Notes: generated by a model not told the origin, from the sequence alone. A stretch of 64,000 bases of DNA from Candidatus Krumholzibacteriia bacterium (GCA_963770685.1 CAVYQN010000002.1:64020-128019), one strand, 5' to 3'; counted from the stretch's first letter, positions 54,410 to 64,000 are shown. Program-made: numbers and translations.

Positions 54410-55796
54410 ATGGAGGCTGATACTTTGACGGTTCTTTCGATTTTGCTTGTGCTACTCGCCCTGGCGAACGTCGCCATGATCTTTTTCGTCTTCTTCCGGG
54501 TGCCGGGCGGCGGTAAGGGCGGGCTTGAAAAGGACGTCAGGGAGGACCTTCGCTCGGCGAGGGAGGAGGCCGCCGAGGCCGCCAAACTTCTCAGGGAGGA
54601 GGTCTCCGGAGCGCAGAGATCGGCCGCCGGCACGGTGCTCGGCGCCATCGAGGTGATCGGGAAATCCCAGGGCGAGCTTCTGGAATCGGTCTCGAGGCGT
54701 GTCGGGGAGCTGACGGAATCGAACGAGAAGAGGATCGACGGCCTTCGTTCGACGATCGACGAGAAATTGAAGTCGATGCAGGACGGGAACGAGAAGAAGC
54801 TCGACCAGATGAGGGCGACGGTCGAGGAGAAGCTGCAGGACACCCTGGAGAAGAGGCTGGGGGAATCGTTCAGCATGGTGAGCGAAAGGCTCGAGGCGGT
54901 CCAGAGGGGGCTCGGCGAGATGCGGAGCCTCGCGACGGGCGTAGGAGACCTCAAGAAGGTCCTCACGAACGTCAAGACGCGCGGCACCTGGGGCGAGATT
55001 CAGCTCGGGGCCCTTCTCGAGCAGGTGATGACGGCCGATCAGTACGAGAGGAATGTTTGCACCAAGGAAAGCTCATCTGACAGGGTGGAGTTCGCGATAA
55101 GGCTGCCCGGGGCCGACGACGCCCCTGGATCGTGCGTCTGGCTGCCGATCGATTCGAAATTCCCCCAGGAGGATTACCTCCGCCTGGTCGAGGCATCGGA
55201 GGCCGCCGATCCGGAGGCCGTGCAACAGGCGACGGCGGCCCTCGTCAGGGCGGTCCATGCGTCCGCGAAGGATATCAGGGACAAGTATCTCGATCCCCCG
55301 AAGACCACCGATTTCGGGATCATGTTCCTTCCGACCGAGGGACTGTACGCCGAGGTGCTCCGTCAGACTGGCGCGGTGGAGAGGCTTCAGCGCGAATTCA
55401 GGGTCGTCGTGGCGGGCCCGACGACCCTCGCCGCGATACTCAGCAGCCTGAGGATGGGATTCAGGACGCTGGCCATCGAAAAGCGCTCGAGCGAGGTCTG
55501 GACGGTCCTCAGCGCCGTGAAGACCGAGTTCGGCAGGTTCGGCGAGATGCTCGGCAAGGTGAAAAGGCAGCTCAACGCTCGCTTCTAACACGATCGATCA
55601 GACCGGCGTGCGGACGAGGGCGATGGAAAAGAGGCTGCGCGAGGTGGAGGCGCTCCCTGGCCTCGAATCGTCGAGGGTGCTCGGGCTGCCGGAAGGCGGG
55701 GAGGGGGTCGGTTTCGATGCGGACGACATGGACGGGGAGATCGATGAGAGCGCGGCCGGAGGCGGGATCCTTTCCGGCGACGAGGATCCCGATTAG
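54410..55796 (+). CDS. rmuC: DNA recombination protein RmuC; one frame break near 55562-55575 (A4 run)
   Basis: Track ORF 54410..55588 plus 55608..55796. The junction reads ..KVKGSSTLASNTIDQTGVRTRAMEKRLREVEAL after a 1-nt correction. Confidence 0.85.
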
Positions 55797-55963
55797 GCGG
55801 CCCGGAAGCGCGAAGGCAGTCCCGGTCCGGGCCACGGGGATAAATCCCGGGGAAATACCTTTTATTATTCTTCCCAAACGAGTGTCTTTTCGTGTAGTCT
55901 GTCTTCCTGTCATGGAAGGAGCAGGTTTCATCGATCGCCAGGAATTGAAAGGGAGGATGCGTC

Positions 55964-57448
55964 TTGAGAGAATTGGCACAGAAGAAATTGAACGAATCGG
56001 CCGGCCTGAGGTGGTTCGTACTGATTCTTATCAGTACGCTCCTGTTCAGCACATACTGGTTCAATGACGTGCTCGGCCCGCTCAAGGGCCTCATGGAGAG
56101 CCAGCTCGGGTTCGACAGCAGCCAGTTCGGCCTGATCGTCGCCTCGACGACCTGGGCGAACCTTGCCCTGATGATCATCGTCGGCGGCATAGCCCTCGAC
56201 AAGTGGGGCATACGCAAGACGGGGACGGCCTTCGGCCTTCTCGCCACGCTCGGCGCCTTCATCGTCGCCCTCGCGAGCAAGGGCGTCTTCGGCAGCGACG
56301 AGAAGACGATGATGATATGGATGATCGTCGGCAGGATTCTCTTCGGGACCGGCCTCGAGACGGTCTGCGTGATGGTCTCGAGAACGGTCGTGAAGTGGTT
56401 CAAGGGATACGAGCTGGCGCTCGCCATGGCGATCAACGTCGGTTTCGGCCGTCTCGGTTCGGCCGGCACCAACTTCTTCGGCATCGAGATAGCGGACGGA
56501 AAGGTGTCGACGGGCCTTCTCTTCGCGGCGAGCGTCGTAGGCCTTTCGTTCATCGCCTTCCTCGCCTACCTGATATTCGACGCGAAGTACGACAAGCGGG
56601 CCGCCGCCATCGCGGGAACGTCGCAAGCCTCCGCGGACGAGCAGTTCAAGTTCAAGGATCTTACCGATCTCGTCACCAACCATTCGTTCATATTCATCAC
56701 CCTTCTCTGCGTGGCCTTTTACGCGGCGGTCTTCCCCTTCATCCAGTACGCCCCGGACCTTCTGGTAAACAAGTTCGGGTTCACTACCGCCCTTCCCGAC
56801 ATGAGCGGGATGACCTTCTGGCAGAAGGTCACCGCCTTTTTCCATACGGCCCCAAAGGTGACGAGCCTGATCCCGCTCGGAACGATCGTTTTCACTCCGA
56901 TCTTCGGGCGCCTCGTCGACAAGAAGGGCAAGGCCGCGACACTGATGATCATCGGTTCGCTTCTTCTGATCTTCGCGCATCTCGCGCTGTCGGTTTTCAA
57001 TAACGTGATCCTCGGCTACCTGGGTCTTTTCTCCCTCGGCATCGCCTTTTCGCTCGTCCCCGCCGCCATGTGGCCGTCGGTGGCGAAGATCGTCCCGGAA
57101 AACAGGCTCGGCACGGCCTACGCGACGATGTTCACGATCCAGAACTACGGCCTTTCGGTCTTTTTCTGGGGGATCGGGAAGACGCTGGACGTCGTCAATC
57201 CTAAAATCGTGGCGCAAATACAGACGACAAGGGATCAGCTCATCGCCTCGGGAATGAGCCTCGAGCAAATTCCGGGGAGGATAGACGAGCTGAAGGCGAC
57301 TGGGGAGATCCCGCCCTATAACTATACGATTCCGATCCTGATGCTCGTCGTGCTGGGCATCATCTCGATATTCCTGGCCTACCAGCTCAAACGGGCCGAC
57401 AAGAGGCAGGGGTACGGGCTGGAGATGCCGACGGGGCACAAGATGTAG
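55964..57448 (+). CDS. MFS transporter
   Basis: Intact 494-aa ORF. TTG start with GGGAGG 8 nt upstream. About 12 hydrophobic segments. Confidence 0.8.
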   Translation: MRELAQKKLNESAGLRWFVLILISTLLFSTYWFNDVLGPLKGLMESQLGFDSSQFGLIVASTTWANLALMIIVGGIALDKWGIRKTGTAFGLLATLGAFIVALASKGVFGSDEKTMMIWMIVGRILFGTGLETVCVMVSRTVVKWFKGYELALAMAINVGFGRLGSAGTNFFGIEIADGKVSTGLLFAASVVGLSFIAFLAYLIFDAKYDKRAAAIAGTSQASADEQFKFKDLTDLVTNHSFIFITLLCVAFYAAVFPFIQYAPDLLVNKFGFTTALPDMSGMTFWQKVTAFFHTAPKVTSLIPLGTIVFTPIFGRLVDKKGKAATLMIIGSLLLIFAHLALSVFNNVILGYLGLFSLGIAFSLVPAAMWPSVAKIVPENRLGTAYATMFTIQNYGLSVFFWGIGKTLDVVNPKIVAQIQTTRDQLIASGMSLEQIPGRIDELKATGEIPPYNYTIPILMLVVLGIISIFLAYQLKRADKRQGYGLEMPTGHKM

Positions 57449-57479
57449 CGGAGCCCGAGCACGGGACGAAATGAACATG

Positions 57480-57522
57480 CCGGCCCGGCCGGGACGCGGA
57501 GTCCTGATCGGGCCGGTTTTTT
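57480..57522 (+). terminator. Rho-independent terminator after the MFS gene
   Basis: Stem CCGGCCCG (57480-57487) / CGGGCCGG (57509-57516) followed by T6 (57517-57522). Confidence 0.7.
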
Positions 57523-57655
57523 GTGCCGGCCGGTGGGCGGGCGGGCGCCGCCGATCTCTTTCCTCTTGAATAAACGGCCACGTTGTCGGAATATGGGCCT
57601 GTCTCCGGCCTGACGCCGGGGGCGGCCGGAATCCGCAAGCCAGGAGGGGTTAACG

Positions 57656-58213
57656 ATGGAAATCAAAGGCATGATCTTTCATTCCAGGAAGCAATTCGTT
57701 GTGGATCACTTCGGCGAGGAGGCCTGGAACAGGGTCGTGAACGCCCTGCCCACGGAAGACCGGGAACTCCTCGGAGAGGTCATCCTGACGGCAAAGTGGT
57801 ATCCCTTCGATACGGGCAGAAGGCTGGACAAGGCCATAGTCGACGTCCTGGGCGGGGGGAACGCCTCGATATTCAGACAGATCGGCGCCGCCTCGGCCCA
57901 GACGAGCCTGACAAGGGTCCACAAAACCTTCCTCACGCCCGGCGATCCGCAGGCGTTCATGAAGAAGTCGGGGATCATCTACAAGTTTTATTACGACAAG
58001 GGACGCCGCGAATACCAGGAAACGGGGCTGAATTCAGGAGTTGTTACGACCTGCGACGCCGAGACCTTTTCGGAGTCCGACTGCCTTACGGTGATCGGAT
58101 GGTACGAGGAAGCCCTGAGGATGTGCGGCGCGGAGAACGTCGTCGGCATCGAAGAGGAGTGCAGGGCGAAGGGCGGAAAGGTGTGCCGGTATCGTTTCCA
58201 GTGGGAGATATGA
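57656..58213 (+). CDS. Stand-alone small-ligand-sensor-like protein (V4R / H-NOX-like fold suspected), hypothetical
   Basis: Intact 185 aa with AGGAGG upstream. N-terminus MEIKGMIFHSRKQFVVDHFGEEAWNRVV resembles H-NOX/DUF2378 starts. C-terminal C-x-AKGG-x-x-C-x-Y-x-F-x-W resembles V4R ends. No YxSxR heme motif seen. Confidence 0.4.
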   Translation: MEIKGMIFHSRKQFVVDHFGEEAWNRVVNALPTEDRELLGEVILTAKWYPFDTGRRLDKAIVDVLGGGNASIFRQIGAASAQTSLTRVHKTFLTPGDPQAFMKKSGIIYKFYYDKGRREYQETGLNSGVVTTCDAETFSESDCLTVIGWYEEALRMCGAENVVGIEEECRAKGGKVCRYRFQWEI

Positions 58214-58371
58214 CGATTTTGACCGCCGCGGGGAGGGCGTCGGCGCCGCCGCGCGCCGCATGAGCCGGGCGGGCCATAAAACAGTTGAATCGCGAAGACC
58301 GCCGGTCTATAATCCCACCCTTGTATTCGATTCTTTTAATCAAGGTGCGGTTTAATCAAAGGAGTTGGTGG

Positions 58372-60471
58372 ATGAAACATCAATTATTCGTTTCCATTAC
58401 CGCGTTGCTGGCCTTCATGGCCTGCTCGCAGACGGCTCAGAATCCGCTTCTGGGCGAATTCAAGACTCCCTTCGAGGTTCCCCCGTTCGACCAGATAAGG
58501 GAAGAACACTACCTACCCGCGTTCCGCGAGGGGATCCGTGTTCACGACGAGGAGATCGCGAAGATCGCGGGGAACCCGGCGGAGCCGACCTTCGCCAACA
58601 CGATCGAGGCCATCGAATATTCAGGCCGGCTGCTCGGCAGGACTGCCAACATCTTTTTCAGCCTCAATTCGGCGAACACGAACGACAGCATGCAGGCGAT
58701 CGCAAGGGAAGTCGCCCCCCTGCTCGCCGATCACGCCGACAACGTGGCCCTGAACGAGAAGCTGTTCGAGAGGGTCAAGGCCGTGTACGAGAAGAAGGAC
58801 GGCCTCGACCTGACCGTCGAGCAGAAAATGGTTCTCGATAATTATTACCGGAACTTCGTGCGGGGCGGCGCCAATCTCAACGACGAAGACAAGGAAAAGC
58901 TGAGGGCGATCAACAAGGAGCTCTCCACCCTTTCGCTGCAGTTCGGCGAGAATGTCCTCAAGGAGACGAACAAGTTCGAGTTGTTGATAGAGAACGAGGA
59001 GGATCTCGCGGGCCTGCCGGGAGTCGTGAAGGACGGCGCGGCGGAGCTCGCCGCCCAGAAGGGCCATCAGGGGAAGTGGCTTTTCACGATTCAGAAGCCC
59101 AGCATGCTCCCGTTCCTGCAGTACTCGGAAAAGCGGGACCTCAGGGAGAAGATCTACAAGGCTTACACAAACATGGGGGACAACGACGACGAGCTGGACA
59201 ACAAGAAGATCATCTCGACTATGACCGCGCTGCTGGTCGACAAGGCGAACCTGCTCGGATATGAGACGCACGCGGATTTCGTCCTTGAAGAGGGGATGGC
59301 GAAGAAGCCCGGGAACGTTTACGCGTTTCTCGACAAGCTGTGGACGCCCTCCCTCGCCAAAGCGAAGCAGGAGGTTGCGGCGCTTCAGGCGATGATAGAC
59401 GCGGAGAGCGGCGCCTTCAAGCTGGCCAGCTGGGACTGGTGGTATTACGCCGAGAAGGTGAAGAAGGCTCAATACGATCTCGACGAGGAGATGATAAAGC
59501 CCTATTTCGTGCTGGAGAACGTGGTCGACGGCGCCTTCGCTGTGGCCGGGAAATTATGGGGGCTGAAATTCACTGAGAGAAACGATATCCCGAAGTACCA
59601 TCCCGACGTCAGGGTCTTCGAGGTCACCGAGGAGGACGGAAGCCACGTGGGGATACTTTTCACGGACTATTTCCCGAGGGAAAGCAAGAGGGGCGGCGCC
59701 TGGAGCGGCGGTTTGCGCGATCAGATGAAGATGGACGGGAAGATGGTGACGCCGATCATCACCAACGTTGGAAATTTCCAGAAACCGGCCGGGGACCTGC
59801 CGGCGCTTCTCACGTGGGACGACGTGCTCACGCTGTTCCATGAGTTCGGCCACGGCCTTCACGGGCTGCTCTCCGATTGCACCTATCCTTCGGTCTGCGG
59901 GACCTCGGTCGCGACCGATTTCGTCGAGCTGCCGTCGCAGATCATGGAGAACTGGGCGGGAGAGCCCGAAGTGCTCGCGATGTACGCGAAGCATTACAAG
60001 ACGGGCGAGATAATCCCCGAAGAGCTCGTGACGAAGATGAAGAATTCGAGCAAATTCAACCAGGGATTCGAGACGACGGAATATCTGGCCGCTTCTTATC
60101 TCGATCTCGACTGGCACACGCTGAAGGAGCCCGTCGAACAGGACGTGACGGCGTTCGAGAACGCCTGTCTCGGCAGGATCGGCCTTATACCCGAGATAGT
60201 CTCGAGGTACAGAAGCACCTATTTCAGGCATATATTCTCGGGGGGATATGACGCGGGGTATTTCAGCTACATGTGGGCCGAGGTGCTCGACAAGGACGCT
60301 TTCCAGGCGTTCAAGGACTCGGGCGACATCTTCAACCCGGCCCTCGCCGCGTCGTTCAGGGAAAACATACTTTCGAAGGGCGGTTCCGAGGATCCCATGA
60401 CACTCTATGTCAGATTCCGCGGATCGGAGCCACGTATCGAGCCGCTTCTGATAAAAAGAGGCCTCATATAA
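58372..60471 (+). CDS. dcp: M3-family peptidyl-dipeptidase Dcp (lipoprotein)
   Basis: ATG 58372 after AAAGGAG. Signal MKHQLFVSITALLAFMACS. HEFGHGLH zinc motif. Confidence 0.88.
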   Translation: MKHQLFVSITALLAFMACSQTAQNPLLGEFKTPFEVPPFDQIREEHYLPAFREGIRVHDEEIAKIAGNPAEPTFANTIEAIEYSGRLLGRTANIFFSLNSANTNDSMQAIAREVAPLLADHADNVALNEKLFERVKAVYEKKDGLDLTVEQKMVLDNYYRNFVRGGANLNDEDKEKLRAINKELSTLSLQFGENVLKETNKFELLIENEEDLAGLPGVVKDGAAELAAQKGHQGKWLFTIQKPSMLPFLQYSEKRDLREKIYKAYTNMGDNDDELDNKKIISTMTALLVDKANLLGYETHADFVLEEGMAKKPGNVYAFLDKLWTPSLAKAKQEVAALQAMIDAESGAFKLASWDWWYYAEKVKKAQYDLDEEMIKPYFVLENVVDGAFAVAGKLWGLKFTERNDIPKYHPDVRVFEVTEEDGSHVGILFTDYFPRESKRGGAWSGGLRDQMKMDGKMVTPIITNVGNFQKPAGDLPALLTWDDVLTLFHEFGHGLHGLLSDCTYPSVCGTSVATDFVELPSQIMENWAGEPEVLAMYAKHYKTGEIIPEELVTKMKNSSKFNQGFETTEYLAASYLDLDWHTLKEPVEQDVTAFENACLGRIGLIPEIVSRYRSTYFRHIFSGGYDAGYFSYMWAEVLDKDAFQAFKDSGDIFNPALAASFRENILSKGGSEDPMTLYVRFRGSEPRIEPLLIKRGLI

Positions 60472-60488
60472 GAGAATTGATTCGGTAA

Positions 60489-60517
60489 ATCCCGCCGCCG
60501 CATGGCGGCGGCGGGAT
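60489..60517 (+). terminator. Strong GC hairpin downstream of dcp (13-bp perfect stem, 3-nt loop), no U-tract
   Basis: 60489-60501 pairs perfectly with 60505-60517 (ATCCCGCCGCCGC / GCGGCGGCGGGAT). Confidence 0.4.
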
Positions 60518-60547
60518 GACCGAAAAAGATCGCCCGGGAGGACGGGG

Positions 60548-60989
60548 TTGAGCCTGCTGATCCGTCCGTTCATGGAAAAAGACAGGGCAGAGGTGATCGC
60601 GCTCTGGCGGGAGTGCGGCCTGGTGGTTCCATGGAACGATCCTTCGCGGGACATCGACCGGAAACTGCTCGTCGATCCGGATCTTTTTCTCGTCGGTGTG
60701 CCCGATGATGACCCGTCAGGCTGGCGGGGTAGTCGCCGCGGTGATGGGGGGGTACGAGGGGCACAGGGGATGGATCAATTACCTCGCCGTGTCGCCGGGA
60801 TATCGCGGCCTCGGGTACGGCCGGATGATAATGGAGGCCGTCGAGAAAAGGATCGCGGGAAAAGGGTGCCCCAAGATCAACCTGCAGGTGCGAACCTCGA
60901 ACCTCGCCGTCATTCAATTTTACGAACATCTCGGATATTCCAGCGACAACGTGATCGGATTGGGGAAGAGGCTGGTCGACGACAAATGA
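60548..60989 (+). CDS. ypeA: GNAT acetyltransferase, YpeA-like; one frame break near 60690-60710
   Basis: LIRPFMEKDRAEVIALWRECGLVVPWNDPSRDIDRKL..DLFLVG, then track ORF 60696..60989 (VMGGYEGHRGWINYLAVSPGYRGLGYG..GCPKINLQVR..LGKRLVDD). Confidence 0.8.
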
Positions 60990-61035
60990 AACCGAGCGGG
61001 ATCGGAGGGAGGCGCGCCGTATCGGATCGGCGATC

Positions 61036-61237
61036 CTATCCCCCGTGCGCGAGGTGAAAGACGACCACGCTCGAACCGTCTTTCAACGGGAAGCTGCCGT
61101 AATCGTCCTCGGGCACGAGGGCGCCGTCGACGGTGACCGTGATGAGGGCGTAGTCGTACCCCATCTTCCTTCATCAGATCCTCGACGGTCATGCCGTCGC
61201 GCCAATCGATCCTGTCCCTGCCGTTGACGGTGATCAT
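61036..61237 (-). CDS. thiS: ThiS/MoaD-family sulfur carrier protein (C-terminal Gly-Gly); one frame break near 61165
   Basis: MITVNGRDRIDWRDGMTVEDLMK, then KMGYDYALITVTVDGALVPEDDYGSFPLKDGSSVVVFHLAHGG* in the adjacent frame (stop 61036-61038). Confidence 0.75.
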
Positions 61238-61240
61238 CGC

Positions 61241-61849
61241 TTAAATCTCCATGCCGGTGAGAAGCGCTATCGCGACGTTGGCCTGCATGTTCGCCACGAG
61301 CCCGACGCGCGCCGAACAGAGCCCGATCTCCATGCTCGTCTTCTGGTCGCCGACGATATGAATCATCCCCGACGACCTGACGATTATCTCGGAGCTCTTC
61401 CCTATCCCTGATATCCCGCTCGCGCCGACGACGGGCCGTTCCGGGAACGATTTGCACCAGGCCTCGATCAGCCAGCGTTTGCTTTCCGCCCTGTCGAAGG
61501 CCTCGATCAGAAGATCGGCTTCGGCGAACAGTTCCGCCGTGTTGGCGGGCGAGATTTCGATCCGGTGAATATCGAGCCTGATGCCCGGGTTGATCGCCCT
61601 GATCAGCGAGGCGAGCGCATCGACCTTCACCTTTCCGACGTCGGGGAGGAAGTAGCACTGCCTGTTGAGATTCGATTCCTCGACAAGGTCGCGGTCGGCG
61701 AGGATGAGGCGGCCAACCCCGGCGCGCGCGAGGGCGATCGCCGCGTTCGAGCCGAGGCCTCCGCAGCCGGCGATGCCCACCGCCGATCTTCGAAGCTTCT
61801 CCGTCGATCCCGGAACGTTCTTTTCGAATATTCGCGGCGTTATTTCCAT
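61241..61849 (-). CDS. thiF: ThiF/MoeB/HesA-family E1-like adenylyltransferase (short form)
   Basis: Intact 202 aa. IAGCGGLGSNAAIALARAGVG nucleotide-binding motif, NLNRQ. Confidence 0.85.
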   Translation of the reverse strand: MEITPRIFEKNVPGSTEKLRRSAVGIAGCGGLGSNAAIALARAGVGRLILADRDLVEESNLNRQCYFLPDVGKVKVDALASLIRAINPGIRLDIHRIEISPANTAELFAEADLLIEAFDRAESKRWLIEAWCKSFPERPVVGASGISGIGKSSEIIVRSSGMIHIVGDQKTSMEIGLCSARVGLVANMQANVAIALLTGMEI

Positions 61850-61855
61850 ACTCGT

Positions 61856-63855
61856 CTATTGATCGCCCTTTATTATGTCGACAAGCTCCGGAAGGTCGAT
61901 GCCGAGCTGCTTTGAGCCTCGCGATCGTCGGGACCCCGTTCGCTCGTCCATCCGCGGCGCTGGTAGGCGGCGTCGACGGCCTTGTTGTACTGTTTCATCC
62001 GGTGGTCCCTCGTGATCTTCATCTTCTCTTCTGTGGTCTTCCCCGCGGGGTCGACGCCGATGATCTCCTTCATCTGCCTGTCGTAATACTTCTCCGCGCG
62101 CGACTCGTACTCTTCCTTCGTCACGGGGCCGACCGCGCGGTATGGCGGCATGTCGTCCTTGCGCGTCCCGAAGCCGAGCATTCGCGTCATGATCCTCTGA
62201 AGGTTGTGCACCCTCGCCGACTGGGCCAGCATCTTCTCCTCGTCGAGCGGCTCGCCCGTCATCCCCTCGTAGAATTTGAAGAAATCCTCGACGTGCTCGG
62301 GGACCTTGGCGGCCACCTGCGGCGGATAGGTCTTGTTGCTGACCGGGACGATGTCGTTCCAGAGAAGCTTGCAAAGCCCGTGAAGGCCGAACCAGGTCCT
62401 CCACAGGGGATAATAGTAGAGCGCCTCGGCCTTGTCCTCGAAGGTGGGTATCTGGTTGTTCACCATGTCCATGAATATGAGCCACGCCTCGTCGTGCTGC
62501 GGCCCCTTGACGGCCATCGTGTATCCGGCCTGCTGCGCCAGCGACTCCTTGCACATGTATTCGGAGTACTCCAGCCCCTTGACCTCCATCCCGATGTCCT
62601 GGAGGAAGGCCGGATCGGCCCCGAGCTCGCGGGCCCATTTCTCCTTGAGCCGGCGTATCCCCTGGGCGACCTCGACGCCGAACCCCTTTCCCTCGGCGCA
62701 TTCGTGCAGGCACTGAAGGACCTCGGCCGTGGCTCCGAACTTAAGTTTCTTGCCGCCGGTCTCCTTCGTCGTGATGATTCCGTTCTCGAAGCATTCCATG
62801 ACGAAGGCCATGCAGGTCCCCATCGATATCGTGTCGAGGCCGTACGTATCGCAATAGAAGTTGTACTCGATCAGGAAATCGCCGTCGAAACATCCCATGT
62901 TGGCCGACGCGGCGGCCGTCTCGTATTCGGGGCCGTCGACGGCGACGACCTGGCCCTTGTACGGCCCTGTCTTCAGCGTGAATCCGTCGACCACCTTCGC
63001 GCAGGCCATCGAGCATCCCTTCCAGCACCCGTCCGGCGTCCCCTGTGTGACGTATTTCGCCTTGAGCACGGCCGAGCCGATGTTAGGCGTGTCCGGATGC
63101 GACCCGAACCTGTAGTTCTGCACCGGCAGCAGGTCGTACGCGTCCATCACGTCGACGATGTTCGCCGTTCCGACCTCGCGCATCCGGCACTGGCTCCTGT
63201 CGAGGGTCGCCATCTCGGCGTTTATCCTCATCCCATAGTTGCGGATCATCCTCGCGTCGTGCGGATGGTTCATCTCGTCGACGATCTCTATCGCGCCGGT
63301 CGGGCAGACGTAGGCGCAGGAGGTGCAGTTTATGCAGTGCGGGTCGACCTGCCCGAAGGGCATCGTCATGTGGCGCCCCGTGCCGCGCCCCGCGAAATCG
63401 ATGATCTCCTCCATGACGAACTCCCTGCAGGCGCGGACGCAATGCCCGCAGAGAACGCAGGCCTTCGGGTTCGGGTCGGTCAGCTCCGACTTGAACCTTT
63501 CGGCGTCCTTTACGCCGCACATCGCTGCGAGCTCCCTTATCACCGGGACGTTCGGCCACCGCCCGAGCAGCATCCCTGCGAGCGCCTTGCGGCGGCTCTT
63601 GACCCTCTCGGAGGAGGTCTCGACGTTGATGGCATTTCTCACCGGGTAATTGCACGATGTCACGAGGCGCTTTTTACCGCCTTCCTCGATCTCGACCGTG
63701 CAGAGCCTGCAGGTTCCCTCCGGCGTCAGGTCCTTGTGGTTGCAGAGGGTGGGGACGGCGATCCCGTTCTCGCGAAGAACGGTGAGTAGATAAGCGTCCT
63801 TCGCCGCCTGGACTTCCCTGCCGTCGATTCTTATGGTTATCTTTTCCTTCGCCAT
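61856..63855 (-). CDS. Fusion protein: NuoG/HndD-like [2Fe-2S]+2x[4Fe-4S] module joined to aldehyde:ferredoxin oxidoreductase (AOR) family domains 2-3; 2 frame breaks in the last 40 nt
   Basis: ATG 63855 after GGAGGTG. C-x10-C-x2-C-x15-C, CVLCGHCVRAC, CINCTSCAYVCP. Then LPVQNYRFG, CWKGCSMAC, GPEYET, DTYGLD, HGLC. The corrected tail ..RRGWTS-NGVPTIARLK-QLGIDLPELVDIIKGDQ* stops at 61856. Confidence 0.8.
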
Positions 63856-64000
63856 CACTTCACCTCCACAGCGTCGAAGTTGCAGGTCTCGATGCAGATC
63901 CCGCACTTGATGCATTTGCCGTCGTCTATAACGTGGGGCTTCTTTTTCTCTCCGGTTATCGCCTTGACCGGGCAGGCGAGGGCGCAGAGGGTGCACCCCG
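63855..64000 (-). CDS. C-terminal 2x[4Fe-4S] ferredoxin domain of a larger protein (NuoF/HydB-like subunit suspected); 5' part outside window
   Basis: A frame not in the track reads ..CTLCALACPVKAITGEKKKPHVIDDGKCIKCGICIETCNFDAVEVK*. Its TGA overlaps the next ATG (TGATG). Confidence 0.55.
   Translation of the reverse strand, partial: GCTLCALACPVKAITGEKKKPHVIDDGKCIKCGICIETCNFDAVEVK

Follow-up and report, generated by a model that had tools for sequence, protein, structure and literature searches.

The 64,000-nucleotide (nt) stretch of DNA from Candidatus Krumholzibacteriia bacterium analyzed in this study (GCA_963770685.1, CAVYQN010000002.1:64020-128019; hereafter the window) holds, on its minus strand, part of an operon in which an iron-sulfur (Fe-S) module related to BfuA/WorA is fused directly to the pterin-binding part of an enzyme of the AOR family. 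We conclude, with a probability of roughly 0.7, that this fusion protein makes up half of an AOR-family (tungsto- or molybdo-pterin) oxidoreductase that is split over two polypeptides and built into an electron-transfer module of the Bfu/HydABC type. This reading is founded on the domain content, residue conservation, gene order, distribution, and purifying selection that we observed in the window and its relatives. What is new is the split and fused architecture; what was already known is the pairing of a Bfu module with a tungsten AOR, in the five-subunit WorABCSL complex. The authors of a preliminary description of this DNA knew of no direct fusion between a NuoG-like protein and an AOR, and we likewise found no characterized homolog of this architecture in the PDB, in NCBIfam, or in the literature searched. 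The features of the two genes concerned are as follows.

61856..63855, minus strand: coding sequence of the fusion protein, a BfuA/WorA-like Fe-S module plus AOR domains 2-3, 665 residues once two 1-nt insertions are removed.
63610..63846, minus strand: plant-ferredoxin-like [2Fe-2S] domain with cluster A1, residues 4-82 (Pfam Fer2_4, 6e-17; ligands C38, C49, C52, and C68).
63286..63465, minus strand: 2x[4Fe-4S] ferredoxin-like domain with clusters A2 and A4, residues 131-190 (Pfam Fer4_7 and Fer4_21).
61898..63273, minus strand: AOR-family domains 2 and 3, residues ~195-652 (AFOR_C in Pfam, residue mapping, and fold matches).
63855..64000, minus strand: 3' end of the upstream gene, 47 codons plus TGA, encoding a C-terminal 2x[4Fe-4S] domain (B3/B4) of the HydB/BfuB type (Pfam Fer4 and dicluster).

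The N-terminal module of the fusion reads C38-x10-C49-x2-C52-x15-C68 for its [2Fe-2S] cluster and C133xxC136xxC139xxxC143 and C174xxC177xxC180xxxC184 for its two [4Fe-4S] clusters. All 12 cysteines, whose spacing had been picked out in the preliminary description, are invariant in an alignment of 52 homologs. The NuoG-like character proposed for this module holds for the [2Fe-2S] and the two [4Fe-4S] clusters but not for the His-ligated [4Fe-4S] cluster (A3/N5), and WorA is a closer relative than a generic NuoG: NADH-G_4Fe-4S_3 (PF10588) gives no Pfam match in the fusion protein even at E≤1, and direct reading of residues 83-130 reveals no HxxxCxxCxxxxxC pattern. The best PDB match of the N-terminal 195 residues is WorA (chain 9mqx_A, 3.5e-34), followed by HydA (3.4e-26), and in a fold search the module is 40% identical to WorA over 193 aligned columns. 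WorA has been reported to be devoid of the A3 cluster (PMC12318220). Judged by its sequence, the N-terminal module of the fusion is of the same A1/A2/A4 form.

The AOR-derived part starts right behind the last [4Fe-4S] motif, with no linker (CPTGAIEIVDE followed immediately by MNHP). The hidden Markov model scan suggested in the preliminary description matched, besides Fer2_4, AFOR_C (PF01314) at residues 210-652 with E = 1e-88, and the absence of the AOR N-terminal domain was borne out, with no AFOR_N (PF02730) match anywhere in the fusion protein, including residues 200-260, even at E≤1. The AOR hallmarks listed earlier are all in place, namely CWKGCSMAC (C277/C281/C285), GPEYET (308-313), DTYGLD (336-341), and HGLC (C495). 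When the C-terminal part is aligned to P. furiosus AOR (Pf AOR, 1AOR) and A. aromaticum AorB (8C0Z), the [4Fe-4S] ligands C277, C281, C285, and C495 correspond to Pf AOR C288, C291, C295, and C494 and are invariant in 52 sequences, the spacing being Cx3Cx3C where Pf AOR has Cx2Cx3C. Similarly, E312 and H454 correspond to Pf AOR Glu313 and His448, and the pterin motif D336-x2-G-L-D341-T342 corresponds to D338-x2-G-L-D343-T344, all of them invariant; we take the functional roles of these Pf AOR residues to be those generally known from the 1AOR structure. In AORs, domains 2-3 bind the pterin and a [4Fe-4S] cluster. The structure prediction proposed earlier points the same way: in an AlphaFold single-chain model of P0001, a protein 97% identical to the window fusion (mean pLDDT 75, pTM 0.67), the predicted C-terminal part fits the AOR-family folds 1b25, 9mqx_D, 9g7j, and 1aor, and the predicted N-terminal part fits WorA.

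The upstream gene provides the other half, as far as can be seen from relatives. Its open reading frame (ORF) in the window ends ...CIKCGICIETCNFDAVEVK followed by TGA, and this stop (63857-63855) has one A in common with the ATG of the fusion (63855-63853). The overlap TGATG with a NuoF/HydB-type gene had been correctly recognized at the outset, and relatives encode the full HydB/BfuB homolog. The 47 visible residues are identical at 42 of 47 positions to the C terminus of P0121, a partner protein of 1059 residues (L039 4822-8001) from the nearest relative of the window, locus L039, where the fusion protein is 96% identical over the 401 residues present on the contig and the operon has a two-gene form. 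P0121 has the architecture AFOR_N::BfuC::BfuB, which Pfam resolves into AFOR_N (33-245), 2Fe-2S_thioredx, Complex1_51K, SLBB, NADH_4Fe-4S, and two Fer4 domains; its AFOR_N is complete, covering profile positions 2-197 of 199. A separately encoded AFOR_N, which the preliminary description had proposed looking for, is therefore found in relatives, fused upstream to a NuoE/BfuC-like subunit. The partner AFOR_N aligns with Pf AOR residues 6-210, with N93 retained and R76 and R182 replaced by Lys. As for the BfuB part of relatives, it matches bifurcating HydB (7q4v_B, E = 1e-189) and WorB (3.5e-184), has a [2Fe-2S] domain at its N terminus, the B1 motif, and B3/B4 at its C terminus, and, on our reading of the alignment, conserves the five positions matched to the B2-site ligands of 7t2r_B. 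Using the Bfu cluster ligand list from PMC9304861, where an "invariant BfuBC core" is defined by BfuB clusters B1-B5 and BfuC cluster C1, all BfuB B1-B5 and BfuC C1 ligands are present in P0121, the window itself covering part of the B3/B4 domain.

Comparison with unsplit relatives shows precisely where the AOR is interrupted. L067 from Alkaliphilus transvaalensis and L073 from Fervidicella metallireducens are ordinary AFOR_N plus AFOR_C proteins of ~720 residues, and in L067 residues 12-251 align to the N terminus of the partner and residues 256-721 to residues 195-662 of the fusion (57% identity). Since this alignment runs without loss over both halves, no AOR sequence is missing at the break. 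AOR domain 1 and domain 2 are instead separated by ~975 residues of BfuC-BfuB-BfuA sequence and one to three gene boundaries, and, as far as gene order in relatives indicates, a bfuC-bfuB-bfuA cassette is placed exactly at the AOR domain 1/2 boundary.

This architecture is not peculiar to the window, as a search of the databases for it, also suggested earlier, made clear. Two protein searches, each with 120 clusters listed at the 90% identity level, returned at least 240 protein clusters with the Fer2_4 + Fer4 + AFOR_C architecture, which is true of all those listed. In species-representative genomes, a scan picked up 579 stretches that encode relatives; 80 of these loci were retrieved, and about 50 of the 80 carry the fusion. 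The possibility of an assembly chimera at the junction (~63240) is ruled out by its recurrence across hundreds of independent assemblies. The listed fusion clusters come from Krumholzibacteriota, Eisenbacteria, KSB1, Aminicenantes, Ignavibacteria, Cloacimonadota, Fermentibacteria, Armatimonadota, Planctomycetota, and Myxococcota, with no cultured isolate named among the fusion-carrying loci or the protein clusters listed. The split, fused design is common in uncultured anaerobes. After mapping the reference proteins of L001 onto all retrieved loci, followed by ORF calling, we found an AFOR_N coding region upstream in every fusion locus with enough upstream sequence. The usual gene order is AFOR_N::NuoE - NuoF - fusion - ThiF - ThiS, and the following forms occur.

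Four-gene form: AFOR_N of 260 residues, NuoE of 155 residues, NuoF of 626 residues, then the fusion (L046, L049).
Three-gene form: AFOR_N::NuoE of ~430 residues, NuoF of ~627 residues, then the fusion (L001 and many phyla).
Two-gene form: AFOR_N::NuoE::NuoF of ~1060-1160 residues, then the fusion (Krumholzibacteriota, Eisenbacteria).
Reduced form: an upstream product of 904, ~780, ~700, or 511 residues, then the fusion (L005, L008, L011, L037).
AFOR_N-alone form: AFOR_N of 264 residues, then the fusion (L044).

The forms at the two ends of this range are informative. In the four-gene loci, both from metagenome-assembled genomes (MAGs) of Bacteroidota (L046 4822-9977 and L049 975-6427), AFOR_N is a free-standing protein of ~260 residues next to a NuoE of 155-158 residues, from which it follows that the split of the AOR is independent of the fusion to BfuC. 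In the Coatesbacteria locus L044 (7192-9977), the partner is reduced to AFOR_N. Between these lie a 511-residue partner (L037 3288-4823) consisting of AFOR_N and a remnant with only a CxxCxxCR motif, partners of ~700-780 residues (L011 5743-7884 and L008 3481-5823) without most motifs or parts of the 51K, NuoE, and B3/B4 regions, and a 904-residue partner (L005 5254-7968) without the flavin mononucleotide (FMN) motifs, in which the B5 domain is probably gone too, judging by length. Taken as sequences, the reduced partners look as if the NADH module had decayed step by step in operons that keep the split AOR. The same split, fused operon is also found in two MAGs of uncultured Thermoplasmatales archaea (L043 and L050), with ~53% identity and on a separate branch of the AFOR_C tree; this archaeal occurrence could be due to horizontal transfer or to bin contamination.

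The AFOR_C tree of L001-L081 (neighbor-joining, 100 bootstrap replicates, single outgroup) contains two split clades, A and B, with 85% bootstrap each. All split forms were monophyletic in 1 of 100 replicates and all unsplit forms in none of 100, so that a single clean origin of the split is unsupported. The tree, which is no more than suggestive, would fit a cassette that was inserted early and then lost in steps; the reduced forms and L044 would be intermediates in this loss, and some re-fused AORs its outcome. We put forward, tentatively, a history in which a cassette entered an AOR gene and left the active site across two chains, which would at the same time be the two ends of the electron-transfer module. 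The flavin site or the whole NADH module would later have been lost in several lineages, probably that of the window among them, leaving a flavin-free Fe-S scaffold derived from Bfu; the split would then be old, and some unsplit AORs would have arisen by re-fusion upon deletion of the cassette.

The electron acceptors are the point on which the family appears to be divided. It had been predicted from the window that the enzyme is an NAD(P)H- and/or ferredoxin-linked AOR; the wiring holds in relatives, but the NAD(P)H part has become uncertain because the FMN loop is deleted in the closest ones. Seven partner proteins (P0121, P0122, P0124, P0125, P0127, P0130, and P0131) carry a conserved deletion of eight residues in the FMN/NADH loop, by which CNADEGDPGAFMDR becomes CNGLERN or CNSMERN, i.e., CN(G/S)(L/M)ERN, and, in its wider context, CNADEGDPGAFMDRSIIE becomes CN(G/S)(L/M)ERNIID. 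The deletion shows as a gap in alignments against HydB, NiFe-HydB, and WorB. In addition, P0121 reads RTGSFVSGE where intact members read GAGAFVCGE, and all seven deletion proteins fail the pattern G.G.[YF].CGE, while all Fe-S ligands are retained. The deletion is genuine, since it recurs in independent assemblies that are 64-100% identical. The deleted loop contacts FMN and NADH in NuoF/Nqo1 structures, and the Bfu core of the deletion clade has probably lost its flavin.

For the window, the state of this loop has to be read from two independent contigs closely related to it, L082 (a Logan assembly contig, 95.7% nucleotide identity to the window) and L083 (a JGI metagenome contig, 96.8% identity across 9.4 kb of collinear sequence). 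Their partial upstream ORFs (271 and 144 codons), which stop short of the FMN motifs, share 94% identity with P0121 and 83-85% with P0122. Because they bracket with these two proteins, the window's partner most probably carries the FMN-loop deletion too. NAD(H) coupling thus appears doubtful in the window lineage, and ferredoxin, via B3/B4, the likelier acceptor. The window's own partner was absent among the 120 matches listed in a search with the 1059-residue L039 partner, perhaps because its gene is frameshifted as well, and an exact look-up of the window protein (P0002) returned no contig. The situation differs in the rest of the family. The upstream region was readable in 43 loci: 26 keep all motifs, one fails the second FMN pattern alone, eight are without both FMN motifs, seven are truncated, and L053 is too fragmented to score. 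Among the matches listed, 80 of 120 triple-fusion partner proteins keep all FMN and NADH motifs. Most family members outside the deletion clade keep the FMN loop, and for those with intact flavin motifs aldehyde oxidation coupled to reduction of NAD+ and ferredoxin is expected.

These data suggest a working model in which chain docking, metal, substrate, electron path, and acceptors are all inferred from sequence. Chain 1, the product of the upstream gene, would contribute AOR domain 1 and a NuoE/BfuC-like [2Fe-2S] domain and, in the window lineage, also the HydB/BfuB-like domain. Chain 2, the product of the window gene, would contribute the WorA/BfuA-like module with A1, A2, and A4, together with AOR domains 2-3 bearing the cluster, the pterin motif, and the catalytic Glu and His. 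In AORs, domain 1 forms the base beneath the bis-pterin cofactor, so the enzyme could work only if the AFOR_N of chain 1 docks onto chain 2. We propose that it does so non-covalently, rebuilding the AOR fold around the bis-pterin cofactor, and that this docking would at the same time tie BfuC/B to BfuA. The metal site would oxidize an aldehyde to the acid, and electrons would pass from the AOR [4Fe-4S] cluster to A4, A2, A1, and then to the BfuB/BfuC clusters, which would make a WorS polyferredoxin unnecessary, with ferredoxin taking up electrons from B3/B4 at the C terminus. Where the FMN site is intact, NAD+ would be reduced too, probably by bifurcation as in WorABCSL. In the window lineage, the output would most likely be ferredoxin only, with the Bfu part serving as an Fe-S scaffold and wire.

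The reading frame of the window gene requires comment. The A of its ATG is at 63855, and in the deposited sequence the frame, which changes twice within the last 30 codons, ends at 61873 to give 660 residues. The relevant positions are as follows.

61938 or 61943, depending on the alignment, minus strand: first 1-nt insertion when compared with L082 and L083, shifting the frame within the final 30 codons of the fusion.
61914, minus strand: second 1-nt insertion relative to L082 and L083, a second frameshift; the two insertions together mask the conserved C terminus ...NGVPTIARLKQLGIDLPELVDIIKGDQ.
63863..63867, minus strand: Shine-Dalgarno-like GGAGG, 8-12 nt 5' of the ATG (-12 to -8), from direct reading of the sequence.

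Removing one base near 61938-61943 and one at 61914 yields a protein of 665 residues ending ...RRGWTSNGVPTIARLKQLGIDLPELVDIIKGDQ, with its stop at 61856 and a canonical C terminus typical for AOR. The preliminary description had arrived at the same end coordinate, 61856, and its length of 666 residues must be corrected to 665 and to an ORF that is frameshifted in the window. The uninterrupted 665-residue form is encoded by both L082 and L083, whose fusion proteins are 97% and 98.5% identical to that of the window. More 1-nt insertions distinguish the window from these two contigs, in ThiS (~61165-61169), in a GNAT acetyltransferase gene (60724, which splits it between ORFs 60548-61057 and 60696-60989), and in another ORF (55579). 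Except for two compensating 2-nt differences in the upstream ORF, all coding indels relative to the relatives are single-base insertions in the window. Since the same type of insertion also affects ThiS, the unrelated GNAT gene, and the ORF at 55579, we read the insertions as assembly errors, and their pattern suggests an error-prone (possibly long-read) assembly rather than pseudogenes. The ratio of nonsynonymous to synonymous differences (pN/pS) is 0.08 over 638 codons compared with L082, which indicates that the fusion gene is under purifying selection.

Two further genes complete the operon, and are given here with their coordinates.

61241..61849, minus strand: ThiF-type E1-like adenylyltransferase, 202 residues (Pfam ThiF, 5e-36; NCBIfam NF006395, 207 bits against a cut-off of 159).
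61036..61237, minus strand: ThiS/MoaD-type sulfur carrier, 66 residues ending in GG once the 1-nt insertion at ~61165-61169 is removed (Pfam ThiS; TIGR01683, 44.8 bits against 37.45).

In the window, as in most related loci, ThiF lies directly 3' of the fusion gene, and ThiS is the final gene. The pair is also found beside unsplit relatives (L060, L061, L064, and L070-L077), and the gene tables of L001 and L083, like the window, show no further thi genes next to it. From this linkage, ThiF and ThiS are predicted to serve sulfur transfer to the pterin dithiolene or cofactor maturation, in a MoaD/MoeB-like manner, and may be a sulfur-carrier system devoted to the pterin cofactor. At L001 12962-14488 and L068 3141-4661, the operon is adjoined by an NAD-type aldehyde dehydrogenase (Aldedh, ~508 residues), in one case beside an unsplit relative, which is consistent with aldehyde metabolism. 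No Rfam family at gathering score, and in particular no molybdenum or tungsten cofactor (Moco/Tuco) riboswitch, was found in L001, L002, L003, L007, L009, L022, L039, or L046. Further 3' in the window (54635-61000) are the GNAT acetyltransferase, a peptidase M3 (58285-60471), an HNOB-like protein (57656-58213), and an MFS transporter (55964-57448), in a gene order shared with L083 and with no obvious functional tie to the operon.

Several observations weigh against a split AOR built into a Bfu module. The second pterin motif has diverged, from DSAGLC in Pf AOR to W-F-G-L-x-G-L-C in the fusion, and K450 of Pf AOR is replaced by Glu; the single-chain model is of low confidence (pLDDT below 50) precisely where the clusters bind and in other, probably interfacial, segments; and the AOR clade to which the fusion belongs has no characterized member. 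Moreover, the window holds the last 47 codons of the partner gene, whose domain content and FMN-loop state are taken from relatives that are 94-96% identical; the scores of ThiF and ThiS exceed NCBI cut-offs for the thiamine pathway, their role in pterin maturation being drawn from conserved linkage alone; and the window copy has two frameshifts which, if genuine, deprive it of the conserved C terminus. That last point leads to the view that the window copy is a pseudogene in a decaying operon, for which the two insertions in the last 30 codons of the fusion and the one in ThiS would speak. We regard it as improbable, considering the like insertions in unrelated genes (60724 and 55579) within 9.4 kb otherwise collinear with L083, a pN/pS ratio of 0.08, and the integrity of relatives 97-98.5% identical; the MAG locus L053 is fragmented in a similar way. 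That the AFOR_C part might act without domain 1, for example as an electron-transfer or regulatory module, with the upstream AFOR_N being unrelated, has no direct support and is conceivable only because the docking of the chains is itself a proposal. Such a role is highly improbable, since AFOR_N is encoded upstream, on its own or joined to BfuC or BfuC-BfuB, in all loci whose flank is long enough, since catalytic and cofactor-binding residues are invariant on both halves, and since the two halves together make a complete unsplit AOR.

The remaining alternatives accept a split AOR and differ in what it does. It is conceivable, if unlikely, that the window lineage too performs true flavin-based bifurcation, oxidizing aldehydes with NAD+ and ferredoxin as in WorABCSL. 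In relatives, the Fe-S ligands of BfuB are all kept (B1, the five B2-site positions, B3/B4, and B5), as are its GRGGGGFPTGLKW loop and the C1 cysteines of BfuC; two thirds of the triple-fusion partners listed have every FMN and NADH motif, and the FMN region of the window's own partner lies beyond the stretch. However, P0121 (94%) and P0122 (85%), the proteins most similar to the upstream ORFs of L082 and L083, are both without the CNADEGDPGAFMDR loop, and the 51K domain has been lost or truncated in parallel in several other lineages. Less probable still is that the physiological direction is reversed, carboxylic acids being reduced to aldehydes by reduced ferredoxin (and by NADH if the flavin site is intact) to feed alcohol formation. 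AOR-family enzymes are reversible, the hosts are fermentative or syntrophic anaerobes, and AOR acid reduction has been reported to drive ethanol formation in Clostridium autoethanogenum (PMC12727526). Yet, the potential of the acid/aldehyde couple is very low, ~-560 mV (PMC9304861, Table 1), and acid reduction would only become harder by confurcation with NADH. The operon has no conserved alcohol dehydrogenase, and the NAD-type aldehyde dehydrogenase next to it in L001 and L068 points to aldehyde removal. We thus retain aldehyde oxidation by a split AOR, with ferredoxin as the likelier acceptor in the window lineage.

The closest known system is WorABCSL (Wor-Bfu) from Acetomicrobium mobile (PDB 9MQX), which couples aldehyde oxidation to reduction of NAD+ and ferredoxin (PMC12318220; PMC9304861) and consists of five subunits, including an intact WorL and the nanowire WorS, as seen in the structure published in 2025 (PMC12318220). 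Both systems attach a pterin catalytic unit of the AOR family to a BfuA/B/C module, WorA resembles the N-terminal module of the fusion in having A1, A2, and A4 but no A3, WorB resembles the BfuB part of relatives in overall similarity and B1-B5 ligands, and the chemistry expected for the split system would be the same, namely aldehyde oxidation with ferredoxin, with or without NAD+, as acceptor. There are important differences. WorL is one chain, whereas the split system has domain 1 on BfuC (plus BfuB in the window lineage) and domains 2-3 on BfuA. WorABCSL is encoded by five genes and the split system by two to four, with no polyferredoxin (WorS) gene in or beside the operon in the window or in the L001 gene table. 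The AOR clade of the split system is distant from WorL (~20% identity, ~720 residues when unsplit), and, unlike in WorABCSL, the FMN site is degenerate in many members, including the closest relatives of the window. In the Bfu survey, Wor-Bfu appears only as Type 2, with additional S and L subunits (PMC9304861). In having its catalytic domain at the C terminus of BfuA, the fusion instead resembles Type 1 Bfu enzymes (HydABC [FeFe]-hydrogenase, Nfn-Bfu, and Fdh-Bfu; PMC9304861), in which, as presumably here, that domain feeds electrons via A4, and hyd operons share with the split operon both the gene order C-B-A and translational coupling. Unlike in Type 1 enzymes, however, that domain is here a fragment of an AOR and depends on another fragment carried by BfuC, and the survey contains no Type 1 Wor-Bfu (PMC9304861).

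Other members of the AOR family offer parallels for either half of this arrangement. In monomeric AORs (Pf AOR 1AOR and the unsplit L067 and L073), domain 1 and domains 2-3 align end to end with the split halves, and the same [4Fe-4S] cysteines, Glu313, His448, and first pterin motif are kept. AorABC from Aromatoleum aromaticum (8C0Z) and the class II benzoyl-CoA reductase BamB-I wire an AOR-family subunit to NAD(H) through additional Fe-S or flavin subunits, as proposed here, and BamGHI is NuoEFG-like. However, the catalytic subunit is unsplit in both: AorABC relies on a FAD subunit plus a polyferredoxin, and in the Bam complex HdrA-like subunits are added to an intact BamB. No curated NCBIfam family matches the AOR part of the fusion. 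A fused or split form of Wor-Bfu is not mentioned in the WorABCSL and Bfu papers, a 2025 tungsten-enzyme review, or the full-text literature searched, while the survey of 92 WOR clades by Schut et al. 2021 (PNAS) could mention it.

Bfu-type bifurcating enzymes and tungsten AORs are both actively researched, and the one combination of them with a known structure, WorABCSL, requires a polyferredoxin nanowire between the two modules. If this reading is true, the split family is a minimal Wor-Bfu, encoded by two to four genes and joined directly rather than through such a nanowire, which would make it attractive for studying how a third substrate enters the bifurcating core. Its FMN-less and truncated variants amount to a natural deletion series that could show which parts of the Bfu core bifurcation requires. 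The family would also be an unusually clean example of a multi-gene cassette inserted at a domain boundary, with an active site subsequently divided over two chains. Proteins of this family are currently labeled "(2Fe-2S)-binding protein," "NAD(P)H-dependent oxidoreductase subunit E," or partial AOR, and aldehyde/acid metabolism and tungsten demand may accordingly be mis-scored or missed in Krumholzibacteriota, Cloacimonadota, Aminicenantes, KSB1, Fermentibacteria, Myxococcota, and some Thermoplasmatales.

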